From the IMG/VR virus record IMGVR_UViG_2675903661_000003: a DNA stretch of 8,213 nt; one strand, given 5' to 3'. Every line of letters starts with the position of its first letter. Within the stretch, counting starts at the first letter, position 1. The position numbers and the translations under genes were made by a program. The notes under the pieces were generated by a model. It saw nothing but the letters and a program-made list of their open reading frames with translations, was not told where the DNA came from and searched no databases. Positions 1-8,213 of the stretch are shown one piece after another. This stretch comes from a virus (taxonomy: Duplodnaviria > Heunggongvirae > Uroviricota > Caudoviricetes).

Positions 1-75
1 TGATTCTGCTCTGGAGTGTACGAAGCTGAGCCATGTAAAATCCCCGTCATATGGCAATCAGTAAAGGAAATAAAT

Positions 76-276
76 ATGTCATCGAAAAACCGGACCCGCA
101 GAACCACAACCCGCAATATCCGTTTCCCCAATCACATGATTGAACAGATCAACATCGCCCTTGAGCATAAAGGGTCCGGTAACTTTTCAGCGTGGGTTAT
201 TGAAGCCTGCCGGAGAAGGCTGGCAACAGATGCAACGCATCTGCGTCCGGCCAGCATGACAAATAACGAGAAATGA
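76..276 (+). CDS. Small ribbon-helix-helix-like DNA-binding protein (66 aa), putative transcriptional regulator
   Basis: ATG at 76 preceded by AAGGAA about 8 nt upstream; the ORF-track start at 16 is GTG with no obvious RBS. The stretch RNIRFPNHMIEQINIALEHKGSGNFSAWVIEACRRRL fits a beta-strand/helix/turn/helix layout typical of Arc/MetJ/CopG folds. Family assignment is from memory, not a search. Confidence 0.5.
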   Translation: MSSKNRTRRTTTRNIRFPNHMIEQINIALEHKGSGNFSAWVIEACRRRLATDATHLRPASMTNNEK

Positions 277-407: not shown

Positions 408-740
408 TCAGGGTGCAGAAGGACTAAAGATAAACGTTTTCTTCACGCCTTTACGCGGCCTGTCCTTCTCAAATCGCCATTTTGCCATCGCCTTTACAAC
501 CTGCTCATCAAACAGATGGTGTGGCTCTGAACGGATAAACTCAATTCGGGTGACAGTACCATCAGCACCAATATCAAACTTCACATCAACCCGTCCCTTT
601 ATATAATTTGCCGCTGCATAGGCCGGATATTGTGGTAATGCCTTAACCAACTGTCGGGGCATATCTGTTTTATGTTGCGTACAGCCCATAACCAGAGAAG
701 ACAACAAAATAATTAACGGAAGATTTCTTTTCATTTTCAT
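408..740 (-). CDS. TonB C-terminal-domain lipoprotein (moron-like accessory gene)
   Basis: ATG starts at 740 or 734; the track start at 749 is GTG. N-terminus MKMKRNLPLIILLSSLVMGC has a signal peptide and lipobox-like LVMGC. The C-terminal part (LPQYPAYAAANYIKGRVDVKFDIGADGTVTRIEFIRSEPHHLFDEQVVKAMAKWRFE) matches the TonB_C pattern. A GGGA motif lies upstream. Confidence 0.7.
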   Translation of the reverse strand: MKMKRNLPLIILLSSLVMGCTQHKTDMPRQLVKALPQYPAYAAANYIKGRVDVKFDIGADGTVTRIEFIRSEPHHLFDEQVVKAMAKWRFEKDRPRKGVKKTFIFSPSAP

Positions 741-759
741 TCCCGGCACAGATAAGAAT

Positions 760-2849: not shown

Positions 2850-3416
2850 TCAATCCGTCTTTGTGATTTTTCCTTTGCCTGTATCAGCCAGGACAAAACC
2901 AATCAGCAGATTCGCTTCGTTTATCAACGTGCGAATTTTTGATACATGCGCGGCTTTAACCAGTTTCCATTCGTTTAACCCTGTACCAAACAGACTGGCA
3001 ATATTTTTATCCCGTTTCATGTCAGCGCATGCCTGGTTGAGTTCTTCCATCACGCTCATTTGACGAGGATTAACGACAAAACCCTTCGTCCAGTATTCAT
3101 AGAGAACATCGTCGCACTCTTCCTGATACTGGATAACCTTGTCGCGGATTCCGGGTTTTACTTTGTTGGGATTGATGGTTTGTAACCAGCCTGCAAGTTT
3201 TCGAAGTGGCAGGGACACCATATTGCGTCGTTTCCCGTCCTCAGCAACCATAACGATTTCCGTTATAGTTGACGCAAAACGCTGTCTTAACTTAGCCAAC
3301 TGTGATTGCCAGGCCAGCCCCATCCCCGCAACGACAGGTTTGGGAACGTATGGTTCGCCGTTATGGTTAACCACATAAAGAGAATCGCCGTGAAACGGCA
3401 CGGTTATCATATTCAT
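2850..3416 (-). CDS. Phage antirepressor-like protein (P22 AR N-terminal-domain-like)
   Basis: N-terminus MNMITVPFHGDSLYVVNHNGEPYVPKPVVAGMGLAW resembles the conserved start of P22_AR_N antirepressor-family proteins as I recall them. AAAGGAAA RBS about 7 nt upstream of the ATG at 3416. Family assignment unverified. Confidence 0.55.
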   Translation of the reverse strand: MNMITVPFHGDSLYVVNHNGEPYVPKPVVAGMGLAWQSQLAKLRQRFASTITEIVMVAEDGKRRNMVSLPLRKLAGWLQTINPNKVKPGIRDKVIQYQEECDDVLYEYWTKGFVVNPRQMSVMEELNQACADMKRDKNIASLFGTGLNEWKLVKAAHVSKIRTLINEANLLIGFVLADTGKGKITKTD

Positions 3417-3690: not shown

Positions 3691-4224
3691 TTATCTGTCG
3701 ATACCCCAGCACGCCAGCGCGCTCTCCTGGTCACGACGGGATACCTGACCATAACAATTATTTGAGCGGATACGGCAGTCCCTGCCACCGTCCTTAATCC
3801 ACCAGCGAATCGCTTCACACGCTCCCCTGCGATCGCCTGCATTAATTCGTTTATAAAACGTCGACGGGAAACACTTACCGGGGCCAATGTTATACGGGCA
3901 GAATGACGCGATCCCCGCTTTCTGGGGTTCAGTCAGTGGCACCCGGATGTTTTTCTCCACCCATGCCAGCGCCTTATCACGCTCAATGGCGTTAACCTGG
4001 TCGCATTTTTTCTTCGACAACTTCATGCCCGGGACGACAGGTTTGCCATCCACCCTGGTGGCACCACGACAAATGGTCCAGATACCCGCACCATCACGGT
4101 ATGCCGTGGTGTGGTTACCTTCTTTTTCATCCAGAAACTGGTCGAGAATATCAGGCGCAGGCGCCCCTGCGGCAATCAGCGCCAGAACGGCAGCCGACAG
4201 GCCGTATTTGATTTTGGTGTTCAT
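3691..4224 (-). CDS. R: GH24 (T4-lysozyme-like) endolysin with N-terminal SAR or signal sequence
   Basis: Catalytic E-x8-D-x5-T triad within EGNHTTAYRDGAGIWTICRGAT. N-terminal Gly/Ala-rich hydrophobic stretch YGLSAAVLALIAAGAPA is typical of signal-anchor-release endolysins that pair with pinholins. Weak RBS. Confidence 0.88.
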   Translation of the reverse strand: MNTKIKYGLSAAVLALIAAGAPAPDILDQFLDEKEGNHTTAYRDGAGIWTICRGATRVDGKPVVPGMKLSKKKCDQVNAIERDKALAWVEKNIRVPLTEPQKAGIASFCPYNIGPGKCFPSTFYKRINAGDRRGACEAIRWWIKDGGRDCRIRSNNCYGQVSRRDQESALACWGIDR

Positions 4225-4278: not shown

Positions 4279-4293
4279 CCCACCAGTGGTGGG
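4279..4293. promoter_or_regulatory. Palindromic operator-like site CCCACCA-G-TGGTGGG in the divergent intergenic region
   Basis: Perfect 7-bp inverted-repeat arms around a single central nucleotide, lying between the endolysin start (4224, minus) and the plus ORF start (4355). Confidence 0.2.
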
Positions 4294-4354
4294 CACTGGC
4301 GGGTTCTTAATTTCCCCGGATGATCGTGGATTACATTCCACCAGGAGATTACTT

Positions 4355-4987
4355 ATGCTTATCTATCCAGCGGCAGACCTCCGTTTACAGGGACGCAGAG
4401 CACAACCATGGGATAAAACAACCACTCATAAATATCGTCCCGGTCAATATTATGACTTTCGTAAACACCCGGAACTGATCGAGACACACCTTGAGGATTT
4501 TGTTGAATATTCAGACAGACAAGCGATTCAGACCTTTTTTTCTTTTGTTAAGTGGATCAACAGCAATTCATCTGCATTCGAGAGCACGGACTGCATGTTT
4601 TCAGGAACACCAAAGGTTGATGAATACGCCCCGGTATTTGGTTGCACCCATGCGTCATCTGGCCGCTTCGAATTTTTGTTTCGCGATACGAAAATAAACC
4701 AAAATGAGCGAGCTGTCGGATGGGTACTTAACAAACTATCGCTCTACCTTCAGAAAGAACGGCCCGATTTTTGTAAAGGAACCTTTGGCATCGTTCCCCT
4801 CATGACGGAATATACCGACTCCGGCGGTAACGAGTTCACCGGTTATCGTATTTGTGTCTATTTCGATGCTTACGGGAATGGAACAGAGGATACCTGGACT
4901 TCTCTCAACATCATGTTTGATGGCCTCATGAAAGCCACCAAAAGAATGAGCAATGAAACAATCACTGGCGAGATGCGTCCCCTTTAA
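4355..4987 (+). CDS. Hypothetical protein (210 aa), unknown function, opposite strand to the late operon
   Basis: ATG at 4355 with AGGAGA 6 nt upstream; the track ORF begins earlier at 4286 with no convincing start. It is the only long frame across 4355-4735. No TM segment and no motif I can name. A hairpin plus T8 lies about 100 nt downstream. Visibly more AT-rich than flanking phage genes. Confidence 0.5.
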   Translation: MLIYPAADLRLQGRRAQPWDKTTTHKYRPGQYYDFRKHPELIETHLEDFVEYSDRQAIQTFFSFVKWINSNSSAFESTDCMFSGTPKVDEYAPVFGCTHASSGRFEFLFRDTKINQNERAVGWVLNKLSLYLQKERPDFCKGTFGIVPLMTEYTDSGGNEFTGYRICVYFDAYGNGTEDTWTSLNIMFDGLMKATKRMSNETITGEMRPL

Positions 4988-5527
4988 AAAATTATCCAGA
5001 ATCTCACTATTTGCAGAGCGCTCTCTGTTTTTTTGAATACGGAAACACTCTGCGAGATTTCTGCTCATCACTTTCCGGCAATAATCGTAAAACGCCGCGA
5101 ACTGCTCATCACGGCGTTTTTTTTCACCTTCGGAAGGGATCTGCACCGACAGTTTTTTATTCAGTTCAACGACGCTGTTCTCCAGTTTTTCAATGCGTGA
5201 TTCGATATCATCTTTTTCTGACTGTATCGTGTTATATGCATTGTTAATTTGTATGGTATACCGCTCTTCTGAACAGAGGCGCTTTTCCGGCAACGGTTCG
5301 TTCCCTTCACATAACCCGGCAGCAATATCCATGAAAAACTGCTTCGCCTTCTTTTTCGCCTCAGCTTCGTAAAACTCCAGCGGGGCACCTTCAACACGAT
5401 CAAGATCAATCACCACATTTGGCAACAACAGTGACGTATACCCACCAGTTTCCAGCGCCACAGTAACAGTAATCTTATCCGGGTAAATATTTATCCCTTT
5501 AACAACCAGTTCGTATTGTTTATTCAT
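4736..5527 (-). CDS. Hypothetical protein (263 aa) with a central coiled-coil-like segment, immediately downstream of the holin
   Basis: ATG at 5527 lies 3 nt after the holin stop, with GGGAGAG upstream. It is the only long frame across 4988-5527. Contains a heptad-like segment IQSEKDDIESRIEKLENSVVELNKKL. The last 252 nt overlap the plus ORF antiparallel, so the true 3' end is uncertain. Confidence 0.5.
   Translation of the reverse strand: MNKQYELVVKGINIYPDKITVTVALETGGYTSLLLPNVVIDLDRVEGAPLEFYEAEAKKKAKQFFMDIAAGLCEGNEPLPEKRLCSEERYTIQINNAYNTIQSEKDDIESRIEKLENSVVELNKKLSVQIPSEGEKKRRDEQFAAFYDYCRKVMSRNLAECFRIQKNRERSANSEILDNFLKGTHLASDCFIAHSFGGFHEAIKHDVERSPGILCSIPVSIEIDTNTITGELVTAGVGIFRHEGNDAKGSFTKIGPFFLKVER
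5089..5124 (+). terminator. Candidate intrinsic terminator (hairpin plus T8) downstream of the plus ORF, inside the minus ORF
   Basis: AAAACGCCG, a loop of about 14 nt, then CGGCGTTTTTTTT. The A-tract on the other side gives a weaker reverse-orientation terminator. The loop is longer than canonical. Confidence 0.4.
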
Positions 5528-5530
5528 CGT

Positions 5531-5746
5531 CTACTCTCCCCGCGCCGCCTTACGCCGGTCTTCTTTAATTTTGAAATACAGGTTCGTCAGATATGTCAGC
5601 AGCCCAAACAGCAGACTCCCCAGCACGCCTATTGCCGCCCACTGAGACGGGGAAACCCTGTCCAGCAACTGCAGGAACCAGTAGCCCGTTCCCACCGCTG
5701 ACGTGGTGTATGACACACCTGTTGTGATTTTTTCCATCTGGTACAT
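5531..5746 (-). CDS. S: Class II holin / pinholin of the phage 21 S type, with dual-start motif
   Basis: [71 protein letters not shown] matches the S21 pinholin as I recall it. Two Met codons three codons apart (5746 and 5737) give the antiholin/holin dual start. The track start at 5764 is GTG. Confidence 0.85.
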
Positions 5747-6464: not shown

Positions 6465-8213
6465 TCATGCCGCGGCATCCGCGTTGTTCACTTCCACCTT
6501 CACACTGTCAATCAGCAACGTATATGTCGCCGCCTTTGATATGTCTGTCAGTTGCAGTTTGTCCGCCGCCCCTGATGCCGGAGATTTCACCAGTGTGAAC
6601 GGTGTACCCCGTTTCTCATCCAGTACCGGCGTCACCTGAATGCTGTTGTTTCCGGCAAACTCAAAAGCCAGTGTGTGCCATCCGTTATCAAAGACCCCGA
6701 ACGTATCCAGCTTCGCATTCTGCTTCTTGTGGTACATCGCGTTCAGGTTCGTCGCATCCGTCTGCAGGAAGAAGGACATCAGCATGTCGTTGCCTTCCTC
6801 TGACAGCGTCACTCCCTCCGGCAGGGACGACAACTGCCAGTAAATACCCAGGGCAAACTGATTCGGCACCAGTGCGCCCGGCACCTTAAACCGTACGCTC
6901 ACACGTCCGCCTTTCTTCAGCAACTCTGCCCCCTGCCCGGCGGCATCATGCTCCAGAAACCAGATGTGGCTTTCCGGTTTGTTCAGTTGCAGGGCCTTAC
7001 CACCGGTGGCACCCTCATCACTGACCACAGCCTCAGCGATGTTTTTATTAACACTGTCTCCGCTCGCCGGTTTGTGATAATAGCGCCAGCCCTGTGATGC
7101 CAGGTCTTCGCCGGACGCCAGCAGACTCATCAGGGTTCGGTTACTGACCGGGGCTTCCGGCTCTCTCTCCGGGCCTTCACCGGAAGGTCCGGTGGGCTTC
7201 ACCGTATCAGGCTGTTTTCCGGTAATGAATTCAGCGGTTCTCCCGGCATGCACCAGAATCGCCGTTGCCAGACGGTCGGAAATAATCCCACGGCGAGCCC
7301 ATGAACTGAAATGGCTGGCCCTGTCTGCTGATGTCCAGGTCTTCTGGTCATTACGCCACTTTGAACCGTAATAACCGACGGTTTCCAGGTCCGGGTCTTC
7401 TGCCGGGTTATTGGTCTGCACATTCGCACCATTCTCATCCGTCATTAACGGTACAAAGAAAATGTTCTGCGACTCCTTCCCCTTATACCCTCCGTATACT
7501 GATGCATACCCTTCCGCATGACGCTGCTTCCAGAAATACGTTGTGTCCCCGCAAATCCACGGTACCGCTGATGCGCTGCCTCCTGTGCTCTGTGATGCCT
7601 GACCGGCAAGCTCCGTTCTGAACTGATTCACCATCGCACTAAACAGCCCCGGATGCTGCGCATGCGTCCCCACTGCCGCATCACCTTCTCCCTGCATCCA
7701 CACCACCGCAAGCAGACGGTTTTTCGGGTTCTTCGCCAGTGCGGCTTTAGTCCGGCTCACCAAATCCTGATACAGCGGCTTACCCACACCCCAGCGCAGT
7801 GAATTTTCCGATGCACCGGCTGATTCGCTGTATGTGCCGTCTGCACCCGTTGTGAATGCCGAAGCACCACGGCAGCACGGAACCAGCAGAATGCCCGCAT
7901 TCGCCGGTATAAACGGCAGCAGTTTTTTGGCGATATGCAGCCCCTGCCCCACGGTTCCGTACTGCCCCTTTGACAGGTCCGCTTTCGGATGGTTAAGACG
8001 GCTCATGTCCTGCACATCATGCAGACAATGGTCCGCCGGAATAATGTCGTTATACTTACAGGCGGCACCGCCCGGTGTCACCGTACTGCGGCGCGCCAGC
8101 TGCTTAATACGCGGGTCCGGACGGTCATATGTCTCCGGCAGCGGAAGGCCTTCACCATACGACATGCCGTTTGACTGCCCTGCCAGAACCACAACAAAGT
8201 AATACTCCGGGTC
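6465..8213 (-). CDS. nanS: NanS-p-like 9-O-acetyl sialic acid esterase (SGNH/SASA-type hydrolase), 5' end truncated by the window edge
   Basis: VVLAGQSNG is a block-I SGNH-hydrolase motif. The frame stays open upstream of the track's GTG at 8192 to the window end (DPEYYFVVVLAGQSN), so the N-terminus lies outside the window. Size, motif and position just upstream of the holin fit the prophage esterases of Stx-type lambdoid phages as I recall them. Confidence 0.75.
   Translation of the reverse strand, partial: DPEYYFVVVLAGQSNGMSYGEGLPLPETYDRPDPRIKQLARRSTVTPGGAACKYNDIIPADHCLHDVQDMSRLNHPKADLSKGQYGTVGQGLHIAKKLLPFIPANAGILLVPCCRGASAFTTGADGTYSESAGASENSLRWGVGKPLYQDLVSRTKAALAKNPKNRLLAVVWMQGEGDAAVGTHAQHPGLFSAMVNQFRTELAGQASQSTGGSASAVPWICGDTTYFWKQRHAEGYASVYGGYKGKESQNIFFVPLMTDENGANVQTNNPAEDPDLETVGYYGSKWRNDQKTWTSADRASHFSSWARRGIISDRLATAILVHAGRTAEFITGKQPDTVKPTGPSGEGPEREPEAPVSNRTLMSLLASGEDLASQGWRYYHKPASGDSVNKNIAEAVVSDEGATGGKALQLNKPESHIWFLEHDAAGQGAELLKKGGRVSVRFKVPGALVPNQFALGIYWQLSSLPEGVTLSEEGNDMLMSFFLQTDATNLNAMYHKKQNAKLDTFGVFDNGWHTLAFEFAGNNSIQVTPVLDEKRGTPFTLVKSPASGAADKLQLTDISKAATYTLLIDSVKVEVNNADAAA

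Follow-up and report, generated by a model that had tools for sequence, protein, structure and literature searches.

The convergent reading frames of the window

The DNA analyzed here, which we refer to as the window, is a stretch of 8,213 nucleotides (nt) from the IMG/VR virus record IMGVR_UViG_2675903661_000003 (Caudoviricetes). It represents the late region of a lambdoid, Shiga-toxin-type prophage, composed mostly of minus-strand genes, and carries two long open reading frames (ORFs) that converge from opposite strands and share their 3′ parts. The plus ORF extends from 4286 to 4987 and ends with the stop codon TAA at 4985–4987, while the minus ORF of 263 codons (792 bp) occupies positions 4736–5527, its stop being read from CTA at 4736–4738. 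The plus ORF contains a gene that we name A; the minus ORF ends in a segment homologous to a second gene, named B, which is found as a standalone gene in relatives. The overlap is 252 bp long (4736–4987) and sets codons 128–210 of A and its stop against the last 83 codons of B and its stop. In both ORFs the first base of every triplet has a coordinate congruent to 2 mod 3, and 84 triplets are therefore common to the two strands: the Leu128 codon CTA of A is the TAG stop of B, and a Leu codon TTA of B is the TAA stop of A. Recomputed coordinates agree with a preliminary description of the sequence, which had reported this overlap of 252 bp and 84 codon positions in a single register.

Gene A (4355–4987, plus strand) would encode a protein of 210 amino acids (aa) from an uncharacterized family. 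Its likely start is ATG 4355, preceded at a distance of seven bases by an AGGAG Shine-Dalgarno sequence (4343–4347). The codons TTA and TCA, which are stops on the opposite strand, occur in the unique part of each ORF, five times in the minus ORF and eight times in the plus ORF, or five if the latter is counted from ATG 4355, as estimated by hand in the preliminary description. Within the overlap neither ORF uses them, apart from the stop of the partner. The same description had called this open frame mildly improbable by chance, and for the window alone that wording is adequate: an exact synonymous permutation gives P = 0.095 and a looser permutation gives 0.04. Such values favor a shadow ORF, opened by chance or codon bias in the in-register antisense frame, which is the most prone to long open stretches; many long stop-avoiding antiparallel ORFs without selection have been described (bioRxiv 10.1101/724807). 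The relatives of A, considered in the next section, bear directly on this explanation.

Of the 28 independent loci compared (phage, genome, and IMG/VR), most carry the segment 4355–5035 with 100% identity, and the locus is carried by 119 of 5,426 complete E. coli genomes (coverage of at least 80%), in copies that are at least 99.5% identical, a variation too small for a selection test. A sequencing or assembly frameshift, i.e., an indel in the record that artificially extends one of the ORFs, is contradicted by these identical independent assemblies and complete genomes and by the lengths of both ORFs, which match those of their homologs; we regard it as extremely improbable. A T7 run located within A (4535–4541) is intact in the window. 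In three other loci (L014, L039, and L040) it is shorter by 1 nt, a deletion that would frameshift A and could correspond either to a real inactivation or to a homopolymer sequencing error.

Gene A and its antisense frame in related loci

The homologs of A are full-length, with 210–219 aa and 53–65% identity, and their size stays consistently at ~210 aa even at the lowest identities to the window, 36% aa and 49% nt. A Shine-Dalgarno sequence is present ahead of the A start in all clades. Scans of IMG/VR and of GTDB genomes yielded 60 more viral A loci, one in Symbiopectobacterium and one in Pseudomonas, and a profile search of 1.84 billion representatives returned 253 A clusters. Most of the invariant residues are situated in the C-terminal half of the protein, which is the overlapped part. 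A is also found without any DUF1327 gene, the family to which the front of the minus ORF belongs, in four other contexts: beside sodC in a Salmonella prophage remnant (L004), upstream of a Salmonella phage holin gene (L007), adjoining a tail-I-like gene (weak tail-I Pfam match) in a metagenomic phage contig (L017), and, in the short contig L016, next to a 200-aa gene that is unannotated and runs on the other strand. Gene A is real along its whole predicted length. It is nonetheless missing from current annotation: it is unannotated in the RefSeq records NZ_AP018808 (L013) and NZ_CP045209 (L014), and the GenBank records of Shiga toxin (Stx) phages annotate the 792-bp minus ORF and omit A. The AlphaFold model of A has a predicted local distance difference test (pLDDT) score of ~80 for residues 53–210 and adopts a generic α/β sandwich. 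A structure search with this model gave no significant match in the PDB, and the weak matches obtained were only to uncharacterized jumbo-phage proteins.

To describe the antisense frame, we used 24 representatives of A that share less than 95% nt identity with each other and cover the same range of divergence from the window. Twenty-two of them keep the in-register antisense frame open over the last ~82 codons of A; over the first 127 codons, all 24 have 2–12 stops in it. Among the Leu and Ser codons of A, antisense-stop codons account for 124 of 431 (29%) upstream and for 4 of 310 (1.3%) in the overlap, and all four exceptions come from two Salmonella copies. Fisher's test on the pooled, non-independent sequences gives P = 8e-28; when each deep clade contributes a single sequence, the product of P values ranges from 1.5e-4 to 7e-8. 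Expressed per 100 codons, the overlap has 0.20 stops in the in-register antisense frame versus 3.9–9.1 in the four other alternative frames, and the same antisense frame has 4.0 stops over the first 127 codons of A.

The open segment is delimited on both sides. An antisense stop is present at aligned codon 128 of A in 16 of the 24 representatives, even where A has a Ser (TCA) in place of the Leu (CTA or TTA). On the other side, an in-frame ATG (GTG in L061) is found 9–36 nt beyond the stop of A in ~20 of the 22 representatives outside the window, in most cases with a GGAG, GAGG, or AGGA Shine-Dalgarno sequence 6–10 nt upstream; the exceptions are the Salmonella loci L004, which has no start, and L007, where the ATG lies at 57 nt and has no Shine-Dalgarno sequence. 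The predicted B product has 89–107 aa. It carries an invariant C-terminal motif, GPF[YF]L, and ends with GPF[YF]L..R in all clades, and its N-terminus, which is encoded outside A, keeps an amphipathic pattern. The antisense of the GPF[YF]L motif is the most conserved motif of A, YLQ[KVI]ERP[DE]F (window 4751–4777, A codons 133–141). In distant A homologs that do not have B, this A motif is degenerate (e.g., LQLYRKDF or LMAASPSF).

Substitution patterns were compared in three clades. In the frame of A, the synonymous divergence (pS) falls from 0.73–0.83 upstream to 0.48–0.53 in the overlap, and the ratio of nonsynonymous to synonymous divergence (pN/pS) of the antisense frame is 0.65–0.86 in the overlap versus 1.13–1.30 for the same frame upstream, which served as control. 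Same-codon identity is higher in the overlap in 9 of 11 phylogenetically independent pairs (sign test, P = 0.03); between the window and the clade at 53% identity it amounts to 0.58 in the overlap and 0.41 outside.

A distant subfamily of A, with 77 analyzable metagenome loci including low-GC ones, does not keep the antisense frame open, and many of its members have an antisense stop 8–17 codons from the end. These homologs rule out amino-acid composition as the cause of the open frame. Since they are devoid of B, they also point to a later origin for B than for A, as would be expected of overprinting, and this suggests that B may have arisen in that way on the antisense strand of the older A. 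A shadow ORF is very improbable in view of this distant subfamily, of the rise in antisense stops from 0.2 to 4.0 per 100 codons outside the overlap, of the conserved positions of start, Shine-Dalgarno sequence, and stop, and of the persistence of B without A described below. The depletion of antisense stops across relatives, bounded by a conserved start and stop, is decisive for the earlier statement that neither ORF is a simple shadow of the other.

Taken together, these comparisons show that both predicted frames are evolutionarily maintained in the family, and A and B are a real, maintained antiparallel pair of putative overlapping protein-coding genes. The preliminary description had left the choice between true dual coding and a frameshift or pseudogene artefact. 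Dual coding is supported, as B is conserved with its own start, Shine-Dalgarno sequence, and stop in the relatives; the artefact falls in so far as it meant a sequencing error, and what is true in it is that the minus ORF is a recombinant DUF1327-B fusion and is called a pseudogene by the Prokaryotic Genome Annotation Pipeline (PGAP).

The minus ORF as a DUF1327-B chimera

The minus ORF starts at ATG 5525–5527, 4 nt after the holin stop, between the holin gene S and the endolysin gene R. This is the usual place of DUF1327 genes, and the gene order is the same in three further loci (L010–L012). Its codons 1–165 (5033–5527) constitute a DUF1327/YdfR core derived from a long-form gene: residues 1–96 match Pfam PF07041 (E = 7.5e-34, 116.3 bits versus a gathering cut-off of 25), and the match to PHROG 2091 is limited to residues 1–168. 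The DUF1327 family comprises short forms of 169–183 aa and long forms of 287–296 aa, the latter with a separate C-terminal domain of ~120 aa. The window DNA is 98.7% identical to the long-form locus L010 down to 5031 and unrelated past that point. The ends typical of the family (...SKSLQ in short forms, ...TYLKVRI in long forms) are absent from the minus ORF, and its tail is gene B.

This B-homologous segment comprises 98 codons and the stop (4736–5032), that is, residues 166–263 of the minus ORF. It aligns with the standalone 104-aa proteins P0128 and P0129, starting at residue 7 and continuing to their end, with identities of 86% and 76%, respectively, which indicates that the DUF1327 core is joined at the N-terminus of B and has replaced the B start; the junction is in frame and lies near 5031/5032. 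The invariant B residues Pro38, Gly82, Pro83, Phe84, and Leu86 are all kept in the window. Among the peptides predicted from the minus ORF, SPGILCSIPVSIEIDTNTITGELVTAGVGIFR belongs to the B segment and the junction peptide contains AECFRIQK. Other E. coli DUF1327 fronts carry the same B, in the 305-aa P0009 and the 161-aa P0024. The alignments thus show the minus ORF to be a recombinant DUF1327-B chimera, whose predicted product is a DUF1327 family member in its N-terminal 165 residues only. A microhomology, CATAA..AATGATAA, is shared by the linker of the long-form DUF1327 gene and the 5′ end of standalone B; it is insufficient to order the recombination events. We also considered B as a relative of the C-terminal domain of long-form DUF1327, as both end with ..YLKV.R, and rejected this candidate on account of an hhalign probability of 0.4%.

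According to the preliminary description, homologs in which the minus gene ends near 5000–5100 would have argued against dual coding. DUF1327 homology does end at ~5031, where the short forms stop as well, yet taking this as an argument against B is misleading, because the sequence past that position is a different conserved gene and not junk.

Several loci have kept one partner without the other. In L082 and L083, a standalone B with an ATG and a Shine-Dalgarno sequence starts 4 nt after holin S, which is exactly the start position of DUF1327 in the window. In L080 and L081, B is intact upstream of the holins and A has an internal deletion and a frameshift. L009 (1–733), identical to the independent IMG/VR contig L057, has 287 nt with B in frame inside DUF1327, replacing 5 nt, so that the B piece (equivalent to window 4743–5031) stands between the DUF1327 core and the normal C-terminal domain; A is reduced there to its last 81 codons. 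B alone is therefore kept in late operons (L080/L081 and L009/L057), and a dead prophage remnant (L004) has retained only A. Neither an L009-type junction nor the standalone S-B arrangement was found in the 5,426 complete E. coli genomes, and the GenBank phage records contained no further clades.

The sites occupied by A and B in temperate phages are varied, some between tail genes and others beside or within the lysis cassette. The pair lies between S and R in the window, comes directly after S in L082, stands upstream of the holins in L007 and L080, adjoins a tail-I-like gene in L017 as in several viral loci, and belongs in L004 to the prophage remnant beside sodC. Such varied placement among conserved phage genes, with an orientation independent of theirs, is one feature by which a moron, an extra gene of a phage late region with its own transcription, is recognized. 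In nearly all loci with a called flanking ORF, the gene just upstream of B lies on the strand of B, and A lies opposite; this upstream gene is usually an ORF of ~200 aa, and B starts 20–50 nt after it.

In the window, the class II holin gene S (5531–5746, minus strand; Pfam PF04971, E = 7e-33) is the late lysis gene directly upstream of the minus ORF. The next late gene is that of endolysin R, a lysozyme (3691–4224, minus strand; Pfam PF00959), 511 nt downstream of the B stop; both labels are also found in related records. A perfect palindrome, CCACCAGTGGTGG (4279–4291), is located in the 130 bp that separate the start of R from that of A, and a promoter consensus scan of its surroundings gave no match nearby. 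The lysis cassette is interrupted: the genes of a P22-type antirepressor (P22_AR_N, 2850–3416) and of a D12 N6-adenine DNA methyltransferase (1813–2580) sit between R and Rz (1301–1804), in which Rz1 (1390–1575) is nested. Downstream of Rz, the left end of the window contains a small lipoprotein-like ORF with a TonB_C domain (408–749, minus strand) and a DUF3950 ORF (16–276, plus strand), and a SASA/DUF6645 esterase gene occupies 6465–8192. An Rfam search of the window gave no match. A different convergent pair exists at the equivalent position of other lambdoid phages: in phage PhiR12_1 (L003, 1637–2354), a DUF1823 gene and a 169-aa DUF1327 gene on opposite strands overlap by 53 bp.

Interpretation and comparison with known systems

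We consider it probable that A and B form a conserved, mobile module whose two genes share their 3′ parts in the overlap, and that in the window the B of this module is fused to a DUF1327 core. Recombination has placed codons 1–165 of a long-form DUF1327/YdfR gene at the N-terminus of B, and ribosomes starting at the DUF1327 ATG would continue across B as far as the stop at 4736; translation of the DUF1327 ORF, if it occurs, necessarily includes the B segment. B, co-directional with the gene upstream, would be made from the late transcript during lytic growth, as a fusion protein in the window, while A would be made from its own promoter against the direction of the late genes. Convergent transcription over the shared ~250 bp would render A and B largely mutually exclusive, and the module might thereby report or act on the lysogeny-versus-lysis state, most likely with A as a protein expressed in the lysogen and B as its late-expressed partner or antagonist.

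A number of observations weigh against the module. In the window, B has no in-frame start between 5068, the nearest ATG, and the overlap, and no Shine-Dalgarno sequence of its own, and the PGAP annotation of the minus ORF in NZ_AP018808 and NZ_CP045209 covers no more than its first 83 codons, as a DUF1327 pseudogene "missing C-terminus." The comparison of synonymous and nonsynonymous variation in both frames, which had been put forward as a check in the preliminary description, indicates constraint on B in the three clades and none between the window and Salmonella (L007 and L004), where the synonymous rate of A is not reduced in the overlap and the antisense pN/pS is ~1. Compared with the closest B-bearing relatives, the B frame of the window has 14 nonsynonymous and 5 synonymous differences, which are small counts and look neutral. 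The Salmonella B is broken in L004 and altered in L007, and the amino-acid conservation of B is partly forced by A, since codon position 2 faces position 2. As for expression and function, a sigma-70 consensus promoter was found upstream of A neither in the window nor in 22 relatives from all clades. A pattern scan of the plus strand detected a terminator-like hairpin (GCAGAG/CUCUGU followed by T7, 5013–5035), situated 26 nt after the stop of A and inside the N-terminal coding part of B; it is weak (−8.2 kcal/mol, z = −0.44) and not significant alone. The structure model of B has a pLDDT of 36 and is unusable. Family, defense-system, and structural searches gave no match that assigns a function to A or B: Pfam, PHROGs, NCBIfam, and PADLOC searches of A, B, the fusion, and divergent members detected nothing besides DUF1327, and no defense or toxin-antitoxin model of PADLOC, Pfam, or NCBIfam matched A, B, or the fusion. 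Finally, the evidence for A and B comes from sequence comparison.

Several of these observations would suit a relic, in which B was real in the ancestors and is now, in this E. coli lineage, a dead and functionless tail read through from DUF1327, with only A functional. Recombination would have removed the start of B, and the frame would still be open because the event is recent and A constrains the sequence. The missing start and Shine-Dalgarno sequence, the truncated-pseudogene call, the lack of B-frame constraint in the enteric trio, the neutral-looking changes relative to the closest relatives, and the decay of B in the Salmonella L004 are all in line with such a relic, as are the identity of at least 99.5% among E. 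coli copies, which implies a young event, and the unremarkable openness of the frame in the window alone (P ~0.1). We nevertheless find the relic rather unlikely, because the junction is in frame and exactly at the N-terminus of B, B is whole in all E. coli architectures (the fusions of 263, 305, and 161 aa as well as the A-truncated form of L009/L057), codon identity of the window with the 53% clade rises from 0.41 outside the overlap to 0.58 within it, and all invariant B residues are retained.

The frame of B might also be kept open for the sake of translation itself, by letting ribosomes cover part of the long late mRNA antisense to A and protect it from Rho-dependent polarity or RNA decay, with a functionless polypeptide as the outcome. 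The position of B, co-directional with the late-operon gene upstream and starting 20–50 nt after it, would fit such a role, as would the weak purifying selection on its amino acids (pN/pS of 0.65–0.86) and its unconfident model. The ORF, however, spans only ~40% of the antisense stretch, ends alike in most clades, and leaves ~400–500 nt untranslated; the length of B, its GPF[YF]L motif, and its amphipathic N-terminal pattern are conserved, and the control frame has a ratio above 1 where the overlap has one below 1. Q-antiterminated lambdoid late transcription, moreover, resists Rho. Translation for its own sake is thus quite improbable.

Within the A/B module, a more specific and tentative proposal, which we judge unlikely as it stands, is that of a strand switch: transcription from the lysogenic side would produce A, and read-through of the late operon would produce B and silence A by convergent transcription and antisense RNA. 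A would then be a host-benefit or exclusion protein of the lysogen and B its late antagonist or replacement, and recombination would be unable to separate the overlapping pair. The distribution of the two genes is consistent with such a switch, as A is alone in the dead remnant L004 and B is alone in late operons. If it were true, B would be a well-supported overprinted antisense protein later recruited as a domain, in the DUF1327-B fusions.

The A/B pair is a predicted member of a rare known kind, the antisense overlapping protein-coding genes, and consists of two unnamed families, to which the window adds a fusion. Whether both strands of the same bacterial or phage DNA encode functional proteins is disputed (PMC7457138; bioRxiv 10.1101/724807). 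Most proposed cases are young and strain-specific and were put forward on ribosome profiling alone; A and B offer the opposite kind of evidence, an overlap of ~250 nt whose antisense frame, start, ribosome-binding site, and stop are kept across phages that share about half of their nucleotides. Natural "knock-outs" of each partner exist, as do natural fusions of the antisense product to another protein, so that the pair provides a tractable system for the function of antisense proteins, gene birth by overprinting, and strand-dependent expression in lysogeny versus lysis. There is also a consequence for annotation: the two inspected RefSeq records of the full-length form leave A out and treat the minus ORF as a pseudogene, and Pfam, PHROG, NCBIfam, and PADLOC contain no model for either A or B.

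The antisense overlapping genes (OLGs) described in enterohemorrhagic E. coli (EHEC) and P. aeruginosa, asa, ano, three OLGs of EDL933, and olg1/olg2 (PMC6294744, PMC5960689, PMC9927249, PMC8850804), resemble A and B in that a coding ORF lies antisense to another gene, the overlap is long, and only one partner is annotated by gene callers and PGAP. Their support comes mainly from RNA-seq and Ribo-seq of a single strain, and they have been described as embedded genes of young evolutionary age. In contrast, A and B form a convergent 3′–3′ overlap that moves between phages as a unit; recognized through comparison of sequences, the pair has comparative support, including a conserved start, Shine-Dalgarno sequence, and stop, down to 49% nt identity. 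Long antiparallel ORFs are common and for the most part escape selection, and the textbook warning is that of the dnaK shadow ORFs ("glutamate dehydrogenase," PF10712), which are in register, avoid stops in many genomes, and show no negative selection on their translations (bioRxiv 10.1101/724807). The A/B pair differs from them in that the depletion of stops is confined to a bounded segment, the synonymous rate of A is lowered, and the frame is absent from distant homologs.

The closest analog of a life-cycle-coupled A/B pair is found in Pseudomonas phage Fc02, where olg1, on the lysogenic strand, overlaps gene 10, which lies on the other strand in a lytic operon; experiments showed that each of the two proteins excludes superinfecting phages (PMC9936078). 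Both systems consist of opposite-strand genes of temperate phages, a likeness drawn from the description of the two systems; the Fc02 pair belongs to the lysis-lysogeny regulatory region and A/B to the late region. As to the front of the minus ORF, the first 72 residues of YdfR from the Qin prophage of K-12 bind RNase E's catalytic domain, and the protein may bind RNA (PMC13232886). The minus ORF resembles DUF1327/YdfR by the match of its residues 1–96 to PF07041 and by its position between holin and endolysin genes, and departs from it in that the normal family ends are replaced by gene B. The Rz/Rz1 spanin genes, finally, which belong to this lysis region, are the classic case of phage DNA that encodes two proteins at once; there, both genes share one strand and Rz1 is embedded in the +1 frame, whereas A and B face each other on opposite strands and in register.

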